Below are positions 669 to 8,850 of a stretch of 64,000 nt of DNA, piece by piece. The position numbers and the translations under genes were made by a program. Origin of the DNA: a virus (lineage: Duplodnaviria; Caudoviricetes); the IMG/VR virus record IMGVR_UViG_3300020576_006967, positions 1 through 64,000 of that record, one strand, 5' to 3'. The notes below the pieces were generated by a model, which searched no databases, had not been told where the DNA came from, and saw only the letters and a program-made list of their open reading frames with translations. Position 1 is the first letter of the stretch, and each line of letters opens with the position of its first letter.

Positions 669-709
669 CTTGTAAATTATTGAAACTTAATATATCTTTG
701 TACGTATAA
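669..709 (+). promoter_or_regulatory. nested promoters: Bacteroidota sigma-A type (CTTG-N20-TATCTTTG) and AACTTA-N13-CGTATAA motif
   Basis: TAnnTTTG at 693-700, CGTATAA at 703-709; near-identical block at 6626-6666. Confidence 0.75.
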
Positions 710-746
710 ATTACAGAAAACAAATTTTTACGCATATTTATAACAA

Positions 747-854
747 ATGAAAAATTATTCTAACATATCAAACCTTCGCAGCTTACGTGCACTCTTTTTA
801 GTGCAAGTGTTGTTTGTGCTATTTAGTAGCCAGGTCGGGTATGTCATGAATTAA
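747..854 (+). CDS. attenuator leader peptide MKNYSNISNLRSLRALFLVQVLFVLFSSQVGYVMN (Leu/Arg/Phe/Val-rich)
   Basis: 35-aa ORF between promoter and terminator; codon cluster matches the downstream tRNA set; contains antiterminator strand 832-840. Confidence 0.75.
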   Translation: MKNYSNISNLRSLRALFLVQVLFVLFSSQVGYVMN

Positions 855-881
855 TTTTCTATTAAGGAAATTTAAACTTGG

Positions 882-908
882 AACCCGACTTGAAAAGTCG
901 GGTTTTTT
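882..908 (+). terminator. intrinsic terminator of attenuator 1
   Basis: AACCCGACTT-GAA-AAGTCGGGTT followed by T tract. Confidence 0.9.
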
Positions 909-931
909 GTTGTTCTTTTTTTTATTGAAAT

Positions 932-1008
932 GTGGTCTTAGCTGAGACGGTTTAGCGCTAGGTTGAAGCCCTGGGTCATTTACGCCAGTTCGATTCTGGC
1001 AGATCACA
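932..1008 (+). tRNA. tRNA-Phe(GAA)
   Basis: acceptor GTGGTCT/AGATCAC, anticodon arm CTAGG-TTGAAGC-CCTGG, T arm GCCAG-TTCGATT-CTGGC. Confidence 0.85.
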
Positions 1009-1012
1009 CAAT

Positions 1013-1124
1013 ACCGTAACGCATCCCTTGCAAGAGGAGCGCATCGCAGACCTGAATTCTACAGGTATCGTCAGGAGGGAACGCCTGAAGTCGGTCATAA
1101 AGCCCTGGGGCGAGAATCCCAGGC
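1013..1124 (+). ncRNA. unidentified GC-rich multi-stem RNA
   Basis: several hairpins incl. GCAA tetraloop, ACCTG/CAGGT, TCAGG/CCTGA and a T-loop-like hairpin CTGGG-GCGAGAAT-CCCAG. Confidence 0.5.
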
Positions 1125-1129
1125 AAATT

Positions 1130-1202
1130 GGAATGGTAGCAAAGATGGTCAATGCACTGGACTGAAAATCCAGCCATGTCGGTTCGAGTCCGACCCATTC
1201 CA
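1130..1202 (+). tRNA. tRNA-Phe(GAA)
   Basis: GGAATGG/CCATTCC acceptor, CTGGA-CTGAAAA-TCCAG anticodon arm. Confidence 0.92.
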
Positions 1203-1272
1203 CAAAAGAAAACGTTCTTTGAATTATAAAACAAGAATTTGTTTTAATGTCTTTTTTTCGATATATTTTTAA

Positions 1273-1863
1273 ATGCGAAAAGAAGATTTAGAAGCAAAGG
1301 TAAATGAGGGATTGTCAATTAGACAATTAAATTATTTTTTTGGTTGTTCATATACAACCATTAGATATTGGTTAAATAAATACAAGCTTAGTACAGCTAA
1401 TTATGTGAAGCCTTTTATTTGGGAAAAACATTTATTAATAGATGCAATTAATAAATCTGAATGTAAGTCAGATGTTTTAAGAAATTTAAATTTAACAACC
1501 AGATCTGGAAATTTTCAAACACTTGATAAATATTGTAAAAAGTATTCAATAGATATTAGTGTGCTAAAATATAAAAATGATCGAGGCGCTAAACTAATTG
1601 AAATCAAAACAAATGATGAAATTTTTATCGAACACTCTGATTTTACAAGATCTTCTTTAAAAAGACGAATTCTTAAATACAACTTAATTACTTATAAGTG
1701 TGCAAAATGTAAAAATAATGGTGAGTGGAATAGTGAGATTTTGTCTTTACAACTAGATCATATCAATGGAATTAATAACGATAATAGATTAGTTAATCTT
1801 CGTTTTTTATGTCCTAATTGTCATTCTCAAACAAAAACTTATTGCAACAAAAAAAGGAATTAA
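1273..1863 (+). CDS. HNH homing endonuclease
   Basis: CAKC...LQLDHINGINNDNRLVNLRFLCPNCHSQT. Confidence 0.9.
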   Translation: MRKEDLEAKVNEGLSIRQLNYFFGCSYTTIRYWLNKYKLSTANYVKPFIWEKHLLIDAINKSECKSDVLRNLNLTTRSGNFQTLDKYCKKYSIDISVLKYKNDRGAKLIEIKTNDEIFIEHSDFTRSSLKRRILKYNLITYKCAKCKNNGEWNSEILSLQLDHINGINNDNRLVNLRFLCPNCHSQTKTYCNKKRN

Positions 1864-1869
1864 AATATT

Positions 1870-2003
1870 GGGGAGGTAGCTCAGTTGGTAGAGCAGAAGA
1901 TGTAACTACTTGCAAAATTACCTCTGTTTAGTCGGAGGCCATTTGTTTAAGATACTTCTACTTTGAAAACTTTGGGTCGCATGTTCGAGTCATGCCCTCC
2001 CCA
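1870..2003 (+). ncRNA. tRNA-scaffold RNA with ~60-nt structured insertion in the anticodon arm (anticodon undetermined)
   Basis: GGGGAGG/CCTCCCC acceptor, canonical D arm GCTC-AGTTGGTA-GAGC, T arm GCATG-TTCGAGT-CATGC. Confidence 0.75.
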
Positions 2004-6789: not shown

Positions 6790-6823
6790 AAAACCTGACT
6801 GCTCACGTAGTCAGGTTTTTTTT
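6790..6823 (+). terminator. intrinsic terminator of attenuator 2
   Basis: AAAACCTGACTGC-TCAC-GTAGTCAGGTTTT plus T tract. Confidence 0.9.
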
Positions 6824-6834
6824 GTGCCCAAAAC

Positions 6835-6909
6835 TGTCCTGTAGACGACGTTGGCAAAGTCACCAAGTTTTGACCTTGGAACTCGGAGGTTCGATCCCTT
6901 CCAGGACAA
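6835..6909 (+). tRNA. tRNA-Gln(TTG)
   Basis: U1-A72 acceptor, CCAAG-TTTTGAC-CTTGG. Confidence 0.9.
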
Positions 6910-6914
6910 CATAT

Positions 6915-6997
6915 TATGCAGTATGCAAATGGCGAAGCACAGGGCCTTTGAAACCCTTGGAGTAATCCCACTGTTAGTTCGACCCTAACCTGCATAA
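6915..6997 (+). tRNA. tRNA-Gln(TTG) with long variable arm
   Basis: TATGCAG/CTGCATA, loop CTTTGAA, variable hairpin GGA-GTAA-TCC. Confidence 0.8.
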
Positions 6998-6998
6998 C

Positions 6999-7724
6999 TT
7001 ATTTGTTCTTTGAATTATTGATAGTGTGAGATAGTTTTTGATCTATTATTTTTGTAATAATAGAAAGAAACTTATTTGCTTGTTCTGTTTTGAAATAGCC
7101 AAAACTAGATGTGTCTATAAGAAGTAATTCTATATTGTTTTCTAAGCATGCTTGAAACTTGCGTTGATCATTGTTTTGAATTTGATTAAGCTTGTCCTGG
7201 CCATGAATTGGCTCATAGTGATAAATGCCGTTTAGTTCAATCGCAAGTTTTAACGATGGGATATAAATATCAAGTTCGGAATTGATGGCATCTTTTTTAT
7301 TGAAATCAAATATAAGATTTGGATAGAGGGTAGTTAGTTGATCTTCCAGATATTTTTCAAGTTTAGATCGTCTGGTGCCATGAGATTTGTGAGTGTTATT
7401 GTATGTTCCAGAACATGAGCGACAACAAAAATGGTTTGGATATTTTTTTATTTCTGAATTTAATTTCCTAAATTCAGTTGCGCAATTTTTGCAATTTACA
7501 ATTTGTGTGTTAGAAATTGTTTGAAAATTACTTGTACATTTACGTGAACAAAATCTACAACTTGTTGAATAACTTATTCCTTTTTTATTAGTATAATTTT
7601 CTAGTACTAACTTAATAAATTTTTTGGCGGTTTTAAATTCTTTATAGCACTGATAGCATTTTAGTTTTAGTTTATCATCGCTTCCTGCATTATCAAACTC
7701 TTCTTGGGTGTAAAGTATTTTCAT
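6999..7724 (-). CDS. putative homing endonuclease (Cys-rich repeats plus PD-(D/E)xK/Vsr-like domain)
   Basis: ELDIYIPSLKLAIELNGIYHY, FCSRKC/FCCRSC; start set at MKILYTQ because the longer ORF overlaps tRNAs. Confidence 0.75.
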   Translation of the reverse strand: MKILYTQEEFDNAGSDDKLKLKCYQCYKEFKTAKKFIKLVLENYTNKKGISYSTSCRFCSRKCTSNFQTISNTQIVNCKNCATEFRKLNSEIKKYPNHFCCRSCSGTYNNTHKSHGTRRSKLEKYLEDQLTTLYPNLIFDFNKKDAINSELDIYIPSLKLAIELNGIYHYEPIHGQDKLNQIQNNDQRKFQACLENNIELLLIDTSSFGYFKTEQANKFLSIITKIIDQKLSHTINNSKNK

Positions 7725-7789
7725 ATAATTTGTTTTTAATAAATAGTGAGAATTTTCTTTTCGAACCCTAGAGTAATAACAAATTATAT

Positions 7790-7860
7790 TGCCCTGTCGT
7801 CTAATGGTAGGACCTCGGTTTTTGGAGCCGAGTATGCTGGTTCGAGTCCAGCTGGGGTAG
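7790..7860 (+). tRNA. tRNA-Gln(TTG)
   Basis: TCGGT-TTTTGGA-GCCGA. Confidence 0.9.
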
Positions 7861-7866
7861 CAAAGT

Positions 7867-7971
7867 TTTGTAGTAGTGTAACCTGGTAACATTCTCAGTT
7901 CGATCCTGGGAGCCATTGAGGAATCAGTGGATGCAAGAGGGTGGTTGTTGGTTCGAGTCCAACCTATGAAA
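7867..7971 (+). ncRNA. tRNA-like RNA with two TTCGA stem-loops and U1-A72 acceptor
   Basis: TTTGTAG/CTATGAA, D arm GTGT/ACAT, CTCAG-TTCGATC-CTGGG, CCATTGA-GGAA-TCAGTGG, GTTGG-TTCGAGT-CCAAC. Confidence 0.65.
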
Positions 7972-7977
7972 CTATAT

Positions 7978-8048
7978 TGTCTGATCTTCTAATGGCAGGA
8001 AAGGGGTCTCTGAAGCCTTTAATGTTGGTTCGAATCCAGCTCAGACAA
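7978..8048 (+). tRNA. tRNA-Gln(CTG)
   Basis: TGTCTGA/TCAGACA, GGGGT-CTCTGAA-GCCTT. Confidence 0.9.
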
Positions 8049-8049
8049 C

Positions 8050-8850
8050 ATGAAAGCATACAGATCAAAAATAACAGGAAGAGAATATCCAGCTTCAGAA
8101 TATTCAAATCATGGATATGGCGGCATAAAAAATGGTGATCATCCATCTTTAAACGGGTCCAAAGATCTTCCAGATGAATATCCGTTTGAAATTATGGATA
8201 CAAAAGAATTAGTTGAGCATCCTCATGGATTTAACATCAAAGTAATTTACCACGAAGGTAAAAATCCACACTTAACTGGGGAACTCACAACAAGTGGAAT
8301 ATTAAATGACGTGATGGTTCTGTATCACTTTGAATATTACGATGAGCTGGCTGCTTTGAAAAAAGAAATCGCCAGCTCAAATCATTTTATGGTGCCATAC
8401 TTAAATACCTGTATCAATTTTGTTGTAAATGAAGTCGCCGCTTTTTGTAATGCTCATGAAGTAAAGAACCCTGGTAAAGAAAATGAAATGATGCCTCTGC
8501 CAATTTCTGAATACCCAATATGGTTCAACAATCTTGAAGAACTTATGTGTGATTTAACTTGGAGTGGAAAGGACAGAAAAATTTTGATTGGAGAAGTACT
8601 TCCGAGGCTTTTAAACGCATTTGAGCACTATGGTGATATGTTGGCCCTCTCAGATTTTTCGGTGGTGGATTCTGGTATTGTAGACAAGATTATTGATGAT
8701 GTGATTGTTGGATTTCCAGATAAAGTCAAGGCTTATAAAAGTGGAAAGACAGGTTTGATCAATATGTTGTTCGGGGAGGTGATGAAAGCTTCTGGTGGAA
8801 AGATTGATATGAAGGAAGCTAGAGGTAAGTTGGAAGATAAGCTAGTTTAA
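8050..8850 (+). CDS. protein with C-terminal GatB/YqeY tRNA-binding domain
   Basis: IIDDVIVGFPDKVKAYKSGKTGLINMLFGEVMKASGGKID matches the GatB tail; no catalytic GatB N-domain seen. Confidence 0.8.
   Translation: MKAYRSKITGREYPASEYSNHGYGGIKNGDHPSLNGSKDLPDEYPFEIMDTKELVEHPHGFNIKVIYHEGKNPHLTGELTTSGILNDVMVLYHFEYYDELAALKKEIASSNHFMVPYLNTCINFVVNEVAAFCNAHEVKNPGKENEMMPLPISEYPIWFNNLEELMCDLTWSGKDRKILIGEVLPRLLNAFEHYGDMLALSDFSVVDSGIVDKIIDDVIVGFPDKVKAYKSGKTGLINMLFGEVMKASGGKIDMKEARGKLEDKLV

Follow-up and report, generated by a model that had tools for sequence, protein, structure and literature searches.

The closest described counterparts of the locus analysed here are the multivalent leader-peptide attenuators of enterobacteria, ilvGMEDA (Ile/Leu/Val) and thr (Thr/Ile), together with trpL, hisL, leuL and pheL. 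Several of their features recur in the phage units described below: a short, promoter-proximal open reading frame (ORF) enriched in regulatory codons, an intrinsic terminator ahead of the genes under control, and an alternative antiterminator helix, which here too would be set by the position at which the ribosome stops; one leader would likewise sense several amino acids. A further likeness is provided by pheST, where attenuation through the pheM leader peptide governs a component of the translation apparatus and senses the charged tRNA on which the gene product acts. In T-box riboswitches, a specific tRNA is likewise sensed by codon–anticodon recognition and a terminator/antiterminator switch is used; they occur mainly in Firmicutes, where they control genes for synthetases, biosynthesis and transporters. 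Phage tRNA clusters, as in T4, T5, KVP40 and others, including huge phages (PMC7162821), resemble the present arrays and often lie beside tRNA repair or synthetase genes. The proposed role of these clusters is to compensate for a mismatch in codon usage or for the loss of host tRNAs. In the published literature, no account was found of leader ORFs or attenuators preceding phage tRNA clusters, or of leader or attenuator control of tRNA genes. The words leader, attenuat- and terminator are absent from the huge-phage paper (Al-Shayeb et al. 2020, PMC7162821), one of whose genomes, LR745206.1, carries four attenuator-type units.

The DNA analysed here, a 64,000-nt window, belongs to an uncultured giant phage with Bacteroidota-type hosts. 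Each of the units described below is likely a transcription attenuator of the ribosome-mediated (leader-peptide) type, which controls access to a phage tRNA array and couples its transcription to decoding speed. The phage probably transcribes a given tRNA set only while decoding of the matching codons is slow.

Two units of the same layout

The initial annotation had described two units with the same order of promoter, leader ORF, antiterminator strand, terminator and tRNA array, and all of these elements were recovered in place, on the + strand in every case. In unit 1, the promoter (670–713) comprises a −33 TTG element (670–672) and the shared block (680–713) with its −7 box TAnnTTTG (693–700), and transcription is predicted to start near position 705. 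The 35-codon leader ORF (747–854) contains a central block, or roster, at codons 10–26 (774–824), which is built from codons for Leu, Arg, Phe and Val, with Ser, Ala and Gln each appearing once. A candidate antiterminator strand (830–841) lies within the leader ORF, 11–22 nt before its stop codon. The intrinsic terminator (880–912; stem 880–906 followed by a T-run) has a 12-bp stem and a 3-nt loop and folds at about −16 kcal/mol (whole leader versus shuffles, z −3.2). The array that follows (932–4842) encodes Phe(gaa) ×2, Val(tac) ×2, Val(gac), Leu(aag), Arg(acg), Leu(caa), Leu(tag) ×2 and Leu(cag). Additional tRNA-like genes lie within it at 1870–2004, 3337–3414, 4327–4458 and 4571–4699, as do small ORFs, among them an HNH endonuclease (1273–1863).

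The promoter of unit 2 (6626–6670) consists of a −33 TTTG element (6626–6629) and the shared block (6637–6670) with its −7 box (6650–6657), and places the predicted transcription start near 6662. Codons 8–13 (6713–6730) of its 25-codon leader ORF (6692–6769) are six consecutive Gln codons, CAA ×4 and CAG ×2. The candidate antiterminator strand (6744–6756) is located 11–23 nt before the stop codon, and the intrinsic terminator (6790–6823; stem 6790–6819 plus T-run) has a 13-bp stem, a 4-nt loop and a fold of about −18 kcal/mol (whole leader, z −5.4). Downstream, the array (6835–8049) carries Gln(ttg) ×3 and Gln(ctg), with an ORF on the opposite strand at about 6999–7724. An odd tRNA-like gene is present at 7867–7972. 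The start codon of the next gene (8050–8850, + strand), which encodes a protein with a C-terminal GatB/YqeY domain (PF02637, E 1.9e-12), directly abuts the last tRNA-Gln, and this gene therefore probably shares the transcript of unit 2. On another phage contig, a homologue with 63% identity is likewise found downstream of the Gln array.

The shared promoter block has only two matches in the window at ≤3 mismatches, both heading these units, and 0 are expected by chance (100 shuffles). Both blocks carry the Bacteroidota sigma-A −7 box TAnnTTTG, the consensus of which occupies positions −12 to −5 (PMC9723704), with a TTG/TTTG element 20 nt upstream. An intrinsic terminator with a T-run separates leader and array in all 15 related units and in the four units of LR745206.1. 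A strong terminator 170–200 nt after a promoter, placed before the only genes of that promoter, is sensible as a regulatory stop. The leader ORFs of the window begin 30–42 nt past the predicted transcription starts. Because Bacteroidota largely lack Shine–Dalgarno sequences, these leader starts are not checkable by a Shine–Dalgarno match.

Correspondence between leader codons and array anticodons

The amino acids clustered in each leader, Leu/Arg/Phe/Val in unit 1 and Gln in unit 2, had been proposed to be those served by its own array, and they are enriched over background: 18 of 34 residues in unit 1 (background 0.27, P 1e-3) and 6 of 24 in unit 2 (background 0.029, P 5e-5). Across the leaders, enrichment of own-array residues has P values from 1e-3 to 4e-7. 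The best own-array block of each leader scores 15.8–39.2 bits compared with ≤6.2 for non-cognate arrays; the corresponding values are 15.8 versus ≤6.0 bits for unit 1 and 29.8 versus ≤3.6 bits for unit 2. When leader codons are matched to array anticodons, as the initial annotation had suggested, the cognate leader/array assignment outscores every other permutation in both sets (1/120 and 1/24). The correspondence extends to codon families, with the Arg and Leu families split correctly: Arg codons are CGY in the leader of the Arg(acg) array and AGR in that of the Arg(tct/cct) array, and Leu codons are TTR in the leader whose array carries Leu(taa). Similarly, the codons of a Ser-containing leader sample all three Ser tRNAs. 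Distinct array anticodons are sampled at 7/8 in unit 1 and 2/2 in unit 2, and in six further units every array anticodon is sampled by its leader. Leader 1 has the least clean roster: it contains two TTA codons but no Leu(taa) is called in its array, it lacks CTG for Leu(cag), and it also holds Ser, Asn, Gln and Ala residues unserved by its array.

The rosters always lie inside an ORF with start and stop codons, and homologous leaders differ in length by multiples of three, so that the coding frame is kept. The leader peptide of unit 1 is identical in two further phage contigs, the sole two DNA differences being synonymous, and homologues of leader 2 have six or seven Gln codons through in-frame indels.

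Leader and terminator units were also expected before tRNA arrays in related genomes, and they were found in a related phage (G001, 154 kb), in metagenome contigs and in LR745206.1, a distant published huge phage. G001 contains exactly four copies of the promoter motif, each at the head of a leader–terminator–array unit, and the four arrays together hold 36 of the 37 tRNAs of this phage. One G001 leader reads Arg-Ser-Trp-Ser-Trp-Arg-Arg-Ser×5-Arg before an array of Ser ×3, Arg(tct) and Trp ×2. In another, residues 1–24 are all Met, Leu, Asn, His, Thr, Lys, Ile or Cys, and a third has a Pro/Ala/Met/Gly/Tyr/Asp block; in both, the downstream tRNAs are exactly those. The metagenome contigs contribute additional diverged homologues in which the match is retained. 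Conservation of the match in homologous loci, the lack of which had been named beforehand as a refuting point, is thus observed. All predictions that the attenuator reading makes for the sequence were borne out. The tRNAs of LR745206.1 are grouped differently (His/Phe/Trp/Lys/Arg/Ser; Glu/Tyr/Ile/Gly/Met/Ala; Asn/Arg/Leu/Val/Ile/Thr/Met; Pro/Asp/Gln), and promoter, leader and terminator precede all four arrays, with rosters that track this grouping. For its Glu/Tyr/Ile/Gly/Met/Ala leader, a non-cognate array scores slightly higher than its own (9.5 versus 7.7 bits). As judged from sequence, this regrouping with matching leaders amounts to a natural experiment that supports the attenuator reading.

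Antiterminator pairing and competing readings

In each unit, a strand 11–37 nt before the stop codon can pair with the 5′ arm of its own terminator (−10.6 to −19.8 kcal/mol). This pairing is unit specific: each of the eight leaders pairs best with the arm of its own unit, and among 40,320 permutations only the cognate set achieves this. In unit 1, pairing reaches −18.5 kcal/mol (shuffle mean −9.7) and is the best of the eight arms. The pairing in unit 2 involves the 5′ arm and the loop edge and is weak (−12.6 kcal/mol with two U·U mismatches; shuffle mean −7.4); the own arm is the best arm for this leader, yet it binds leader 1 more strongly. The two strands co-vary, with compensatory changes in diverged homologues (B versus B2, −19.8/−9.0 and −10.6/−14.3; C versus C2 likewise).

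These features suggest a mechanism in which the host sigma-A RNA polymerase would initiate at the Bacteroidota-type promoter and a ribosome would translate the short leader, the roster of which lists codons read by the downstream tRNAs. If all roster aminoacyl-tRNAs are plentiful, the ribosome would move on across the antiterminator strand near the 3′ end of the leader, allowing the terminator hairpin to form and transcription to stop before the array. Should even one of them be scarce, the ribosome would stall within the roster and leave the strand free to take the emerging 5′ arm of the terminator, and the polymerase would read through into the tRNA genes. The newly made tRNAs would then lift the stall, in a negative feedback. 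Translation of the leaders, its coupling to transcription and regulated read-through are inferred from this arrangement; as to host competence, clues for leader-peptide attenuation have been reported in Flavobacterium psychrophilum (PMC9723704).

In a simple ribosome-mask folding model, the 5′ arm is paired upstream with the ribosome on roster codons, and much less so with the ribosome further on, a direction that agrees for most units; in unit 1, the strand is free with the ribosome at codons 5–23 and covered from codon 26. Nearly all modelled states favour the terminator at equilibrium, and antitermination would therefore have to be kinetic. Modelled unit 1 RNA that is not translated also makes the antiterminator before the 3′ arm exists, so the classical superattenuated state is not evident for this unit.

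The dominance of the terminator at equilibrium, together with the weak Gln antiterminator, would also be expected of fixed partial terminators that give constant low read-through or insulate the arrays, the upstream ORFs being incidental and sensing nothing. Such terminators leave unexplained the roster/array matches that are unique among 120 and 24 permutations, the Arg/Leu codon-family split with near-complete anticodon sampling, the unit-specific leader/terminator complementarity with its compensatory changes, and the LR745206.1 rosters that track a different tRNA grouping; this explanation is considered highly improbable. The equilibrium result also fits with leaders that are translated and do sense decoding, but that act on how the array precursor is processed or how stable it is, or through peptides working in trans, rather than on termination. 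Consistent with this, in two related units the strand ends 17–21 nt before the stop codon, too far for complete coverage by a ribosome waiting at the stop, and some units have small ORFs after the terminator. Every unit, however, combines a canonical intrinsic terminator and T-run, placed after the leader and ahead of the array, with a competitor strand that co-varies with the 5′ arm, and this combination is the specific signature of termination control. A shared trans function is argued against because the peptides are of low complexity and differ between units, and an output other than termination is very unlikely.

The same terminator/antiterminator layout and codon/anticodon correspondence are predicted if tRNA anticodons pair directly with the leader roster, as in a T-box-like or another tRNA-binding riboswitch, and stabilise the antiterminator without a ribosome; direct sensing of tRNA by T-box leaders is established. 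Against such a translation-independent sensor, an Rfam search of window positions 1–10000 (E up to 1) returned tRNA and weak sub-threshold Plastid-ycf2 and P31 matches, with no T-box or other cis-regulatory family. The confinement of rosters to ORFs, the in-frame indels, the synonymous differences in unit 1 and the constant distance of the antiterminator strand from the stop codon also speak against it. In addition, each roster would present 6–24 different specifier codons, for which we know of no T-box precedent. Direct RNA sensing is accordingly regarded as having very little chance of being correct, and leader-peptide attenuation is retained as the preferred reading.

Possible purpose and comparison with known regulators

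The physiological trigger of these attenuators is inferred; candidates include amino-acid starvation, a mismatch in codon usage, attack by host anticodon nucleases and the decay of host tRNAs that follows shut-off. The window also encodes the RNA-repair proteins RtcB and RlaP and two Pnkp-like (kinase/phosphatase) RNA-repair-like proteins, and because these genes share the window, an inducible counter-defence is a plausible purpose. The paired copies of tRNAs with long variable arms may serve as spares less open to attack by nucleases. Tentatively, giant Bacteroidota phages could possess a complete, modular network of decoding-speed sensors, with one codon-roster attenuator per tRNA array, that replaces host tRNAs family by family upon their depletion by host anticodon nucleases or shut-off; this broader proposal is possible but doubtful. 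If true, it would represent a so far undescribed principle of inducible counter-defence and translation take-over, and tRNA-handling proteins, the GatB/YqeY-domain protein among them, would be part of it as well.

By sequence, the units have the classical parts of an attenuator: a short ORF, clustered cognate codons, an intrinsic terminator and a mutually exclusive antiterminator helix, the last being weak in unit 2. The regulated genes, tRNA genes and that of the GatB/YqeY-domain protein, lie outside the classical scope of amino-acid biosynthesis and synthetase genes. The novelty lies in this target, which does not conflict with the attenuation mechanism. T-boxes differ in that they need no translation and bind uncharged tRNA directly, by means of a conserved T-box motif and a single specifier codon, whereas the phage rosters lie in maintained ORFs. 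The pheST attenuator belongs to a cellular gene, targets phenylalanyl-tRNA synthetase and senses a single amino acid; the phage units control tRNA genes. Enterobacterial attenuators control biosynthetic enzymes, in contrast to the tRNA genes and tRNA(Gln)-binding-domain protein found here, and sequence similarity to them is neither expected nor claimed. Unlike their leaders, the phage rosters cover up to eight amino acids and sample individual isoacceptor anticodons. The phage-borne units also form a parallel set that jointly covers nearly the whole code, and their output would feed back directly on the sensed molecule.

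Layout and promoter of the two units

The source virus record comprises 188,933 bp and is estimated to be 74% complete; the window is its first 64 kb. The initial annotation had described two units of the same layout, in which a promoter block is followed by a short leader ORF, a terminator and a tRNA array, and all of these elements were located, in identical arrangement, at 670-4842 and 6626-8049. In unit 1, a −33 TTG (670-672) precedes the shared promoter block (680-713, with a TAnnTTTG box at 693-700), a 35-codon leader ORF (747-854), a 12-bp terminator stem (880-906) followed by a T-run (about 906-912), and an array of eleven tRNAs called by ARAGORN/Infernal from 932 to 4842 (Phe x2, Val x3, Leu x5, and Arg). 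Unit 2 consists of a −33 TTTG (6626-6629), the shared block (6637-6670, box at 6650-6657), a 25-codon leader ORF (6692-6769), a 13-bp terminator stem (6790-6819) with its T-run (about 6819-6826), and four tRNA-Gln genes (6835 to 8049). An HNH endonuclease gene lies within array 1 (1273-1863, plus strand). The Gln array contains a Cys-rich ORF without a Pfam match (about 6999-7724); this ORF is encoded on the minus strand, so that transcripts reading through from unit 2 would be antisense to it. A GatB/YqeY-domain protein is probably also expressed from unit 2, judging from its start directly after the last tRNA-Gln, an arrangement that is kept on another contig. For this protein, tblastn gave no match among GenBank phages and a peptide-pattern search of IMG/VR gave no relative.

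Within the window, with up to three mismatches allowed, the promoter block is matched at these two sites only, and in 100 shuffles not at all. Its box and spacing agree with the sigma-A promoter of Flavobacteria and Bacteroidota (PMC9723704), so that transcription by the host polymerase probably begins near 705 and 6662. A further copy of the block, slightly diverged, is found elsewhere in the same genome (about 125,060-125,095), ahead of an ordinary 216-aa protein gene and with neither leader nor terminator behind it, which rules out the block as a component of the sensor and identifies it as a promoter. A search of 185,579 bacterial and archaeal species genomes with the promoter pattern returned three matches, none before tRNAs or a leader, and so revealed no bacterial counterpart of the units. 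One of the three is an ordinary Bacteroidales promoter ahead of a secreted-protein gene; the block is thus a good host-type promoter. As an IMG/VR query, the promoter core alone matched mostly by chance, within coding regions, and a longer pattern was required.

Correspondence between leader codons and tRNA arrays

Each leader contains a central block of codons, here termed the roster, that matches the tRNAs encoded downstream. Codons 10-26 of leader 1 specify almost exclusively Leu, Arg, Phe, and Val, and codons 8-13 of leader 2 are six Gln codons (four CAA and two CAG), behind which lie three tRNA-Gln(UUG) genes and one tRNA-Gln(CUG) gene. Relative to the amino-acid usage in long ORFs of this genome, residues served by the leader's own array are enriched in both leader 1 (P = 1e-3) and leader 2 (P = 5e-5), as had been claimed from inspection. 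The leader codons sample seven of the eight distinct anticodons of array 1, missing Leu(cag) alone, and both of array 2. Leader 1 is the least clean roster, with two TTA codons for which no Leu(taa) was called and residues unserved by its own array.

Among GenBank phages, no megablast match to the region was obtained, and distant blastn matches were tRNA-sized only. The promoter pattern led instead to a related phage record, G001 (154 kb, 59% complete), which carries exactly four copies of the motif, all on one strand and each followed by leader ORF, terminator, and tRNA array; these arrays hold 36 of the 37 tRNAs in the record. One G001 leader peptide is the same as that of window unit 1, with only two DNA differences, both synonymous. 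Another contains Arg-Ser-Trp-Ser-Trp-Arg-Arg-Ser x5-Arg ahead of Ser(tga), Ser(gct), Ser(gga), Arg(tct), and two Trp tRNAs. In a third, residues 1-24 are only Met, Leu, Asn, His, Thr, Lys, Ile, and Cys, and the array encodes exactly those eight, while the last has a Pro/Ala/Met/Gly/Tyr/Asp block followed by exactly those tRNAs. The lone remaining G001 tRNA, with an amber-reading CTA anticodon, lies on the reverse strand at about 72792-72864, which is 4 kb upstream of the Ser/Arg/Trp unit, and is preceded by neither leader nor terminator; it is a hint that TAG may be suppressed or recoded in this group of phages.

Scans of metagenomes and, for a second time, of IMG/VR yielded more contigs, one of them with three units; these contigs carry homologues, some identical and others diverged, of each of the five unit types. 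The leader–terminator units that the initial annotation had proposed to seek before tRNA arrays in related genomes are therefore present both in G001 and on other contigs. On one metagenome contig (OGWN01006513.1), the Ser/Arg/Trp promoter and leader are followed by an abrupt change to unrelated GC-rich sequence and no terminator, probably the result of a chimeric assembly. By an objective best-segment score, leaders reach 15.8-39.2 bits against their own array, whereas none exceeds 6.2 bits against a non-cognate one, and the cognate leader/array assignment is the best among 120 permutations. The proposed comparison of leader codons with array anticodons likewise holds at the codon level: Arg is encoded by CGC/CGT where the array has Arg(acg) and by AGA/AGG where it has Arg(tct), alone or with Arg(cct), Leu by TTA/TTG where it has Leu(taa), and the leader Ser codons cover all three Ser isoacceptors. 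Homologous leaders differ in length by multiples of three (one Gln codon, one Ile codon, 9 nt), which fits selection on a reading frame.

The class I Glu/Gln-type synthetase encoded in the window shares 36-43% identity with genes from the largest of the huge phages described by Al-Shayeb et al. 2020, a paper from which the words leader, attenuat-, and terminator are absent by term search. In one of these phages, LR745206.1 (634,780 bp), all four multi-tRNA arrays have a TAnnTTTG-type promoter, a short ORF, and a strong terminator ahead; the single Met tRNAs have no leader. The tRNAs are grouped unlike those of the window's lineage, into His/Phe/Trp/Lys/Arg/Ser, Glu/Tyr/Ile/Gly/Met/Ala, Asn/Arg/Leu/Val/Ile/Thr/Met, and Pro/Asp/Gln arrays, and the leader rosters track this grouping, as in the eight-residue run of Pro, Gln, and Asp only ahead of the Pro/Asp/Gln array. 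The cognate assignment is the best of 24 permutations, with the Glu/Tyr/Ile/Gly/Met/Ala leader scoring slightly higher on a non-cognate array. This regrouping provides the strongest argument that the match is functional rather than accidentally inherited. Conservation of the codon/anticodon match at homologous loci, on which the initial annotation had staked its reading, is thus seen in G001, in the homologues, and across the LR745206.1 regrouping. Most leaders from the window, G001, and LR745206.1 share a comparable A-rich opening, in which Met and a Lys or Asn precede Thr/Val/Ile/Asn residues, and a near-identical stretch just 5′ of the start codon is common to several units in the window's lineage. 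These common features suggest that units were duplicated and that their roster blocks were then rewritten.

Antiterminator pairing and the proposed switch

The leader ORF of every unit includes, toward its 3′ end and 11-37 nt 5′ of the stop codon, a strand that complements the 5′ arm of the terminator in the same unit. The predicted duplex energies are −10.6 to −19.8 kcal/mol, compared with −7 to −11 kcal/mol for shuffled leaders. Terminator sequences differ among units, and for each of eight independent leaders the best partner is its own terminator arm, with the cognate set being the best of 40,320 permutations. In diverged homologues of the Pro/Asp/... unit, the cognate pairs have energies of −19.8 and −14.3 kcal/mol and the swapped pairs −9.0 and −10.6 kcal/mol; the Ser/Arg/Trp unit homologues show the same compensatory change. 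The antiterminator strand noted earlier inside the leader is supported by this unit-specific pairing and covariation. The pairing in unit 2 reaches only −12.6 kcal/mol and includes two U·U mismatches, and in two related units the strand would not be fully covered by a ribosome sitting at the stop codon.

The switch was modeled crudely by masking 30 nt per ribosome and folding the transcript as far as the terminator loop. With a ribosome on the roster codons, the terminator 5′ arm is mostly paired upstream, and with the ribosome moved onto the antiterminator strand, it is far less so. In untranslated unit 2 RNA, the Gln-codon tract pairs with the antiterminator strand and leaves the terminator free to form, which resembles the classical 1:2/3:4 state; no such superattenuated fold was obtained for untranslated unit 1 RNA. 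Since the terminator is dominant at equilibrium in this model, the switch would have to be kinetic.

Ribosome-mediated attenuation of the tRNA arrays is the best-supported reading of these units and, in our judgment, a probable one. Fast decoding of the roster would allow the terminator to form, and a stall at any roster codon would free the antiterminator and let polymerase enter the array, with the newly made tRNAs closing a negative feedback loop. A T-box-like sensor that works without translation is unlikely, given the lack of an Rfam T-box match in positions 1-10000 of the window at E up to 1 and the maintenance of the leader ORFs. If the terminators were fixed and the ORFs incidental, neither the permutation results nor the LR745206.1 regrouping would be explained. 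It is possible that the stall governs processing instead of termination, but this alternative leaves unaccounted for the co-varying competitor of the terminator arm.

What would trigger attenuator-relieving stalls in nature may be exposure to tRNA cleavage, which would fit the RNA-repair set near the tRNA arrays: an RtcB ligase (17895-19265), two kinase/phosphatase RNA-repair-like proteins, one HD plus AAA_33 kinase-like (27987-29084) and one metallophosphatase plus AAA_33 and Pnkp-like (38759-40303), and RlaP (50327-52030). Host tRNA decay after shut-off, or a codon-usage mismatch, would be equally workable. Close to the repair genes are DnaJ, a protein-kinase-like gene, and two AAA ATPases.

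Unusual tRNA and synthetase genes and relation to known attenuators

Pairs of tRNAs with the same anticodon are common, in the window (2304-2389, 6915-6998) and at the four G001 loci (L020-L023). One member has 72-76 nt and the other 84-90 nt with a 15-19-nt variable arm, by ARAGORN parsing alone. The long-arm members (Val, Gln, Asn, Thr, Lys, Ile, Cys, Asp, Ala, Met, and Trp) are normally short-arm tRNAs; in the reverse case, Leu(tag) (4463-4538) and Leu(cag) (4766-4842) have short variable regions. Between called tRNAs lie tRNA-like genes (1870-2004, 4327-4458, 4571-4699, 7867-7972, and also 3337-3414) that have about 12-58 nt inserted in the anticodon loop or close to it. With introns allowed, ARAGORN reads these as Tyr(gta), a cta-anticodon tRNA, Leu(cag), and an odd Gly(tcc), and Infernal places 4327-4457 and 3337-3414 just over the tRNA threshold. 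They could be intron-containing genes, degenerate copies, or something else.

The synthetase gene (33753-35325), which has no leader unit upstream and is absent from G001, is interrupted near its start. A 19-codon ORF (33753-33812) ends Ala-Pro-Ser-stop, and the frame resumes at +1 from 33814 with Ser-Pro-Thr-Gly, leading into the HIGH-motif region. Because identical TCA codons flank the stop and one additional base, the interruption could reflect a short ribosome hop, a +1 shift, or an assembly error.

It is a long-standing question why phages carry tRNAs and how they decide when to deploy them; the answers put forward are that the tRNAs compensate for codon usage, replace host tRNAs that have been degraded, or allow escape from anticodon nucleases. 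If the attenuation reading is true, the phage gauges decoding speed codon by codon and answers with the matching tRNAs, the question becomes testable with reporters, and the tRNAs that matter in infection are predicted. The rosters would offer a sequence-only readout of the tRNAs that each array should back up, and could serve as compact, programmable sensors for individual tRNA pools.

Clues for leader-peptide attenuation have been reported in Flavobacterium psychrophilum (PMC9723704), and the host phylum is thus likely competent for this type of control. In line with the initial annotation, to which no such attenuators over tRNA genes were known, full-text literature searches gave no description of leader-peptide control of tRNA genes. 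All sequence-readable structural features of the leader-peptide attenuator class are present in the units, which in their proposed way of working resemble the multivalent ilv and thr attenuators of amino-acid operons as well as the pheST attenuator. The scope of regulated genes differs from that of these classical systems: the targets here are tRNA genes in a phage, and trp-type attenuation, a textbook mechanism, would, if this reading is true, reach a new class of target genes.
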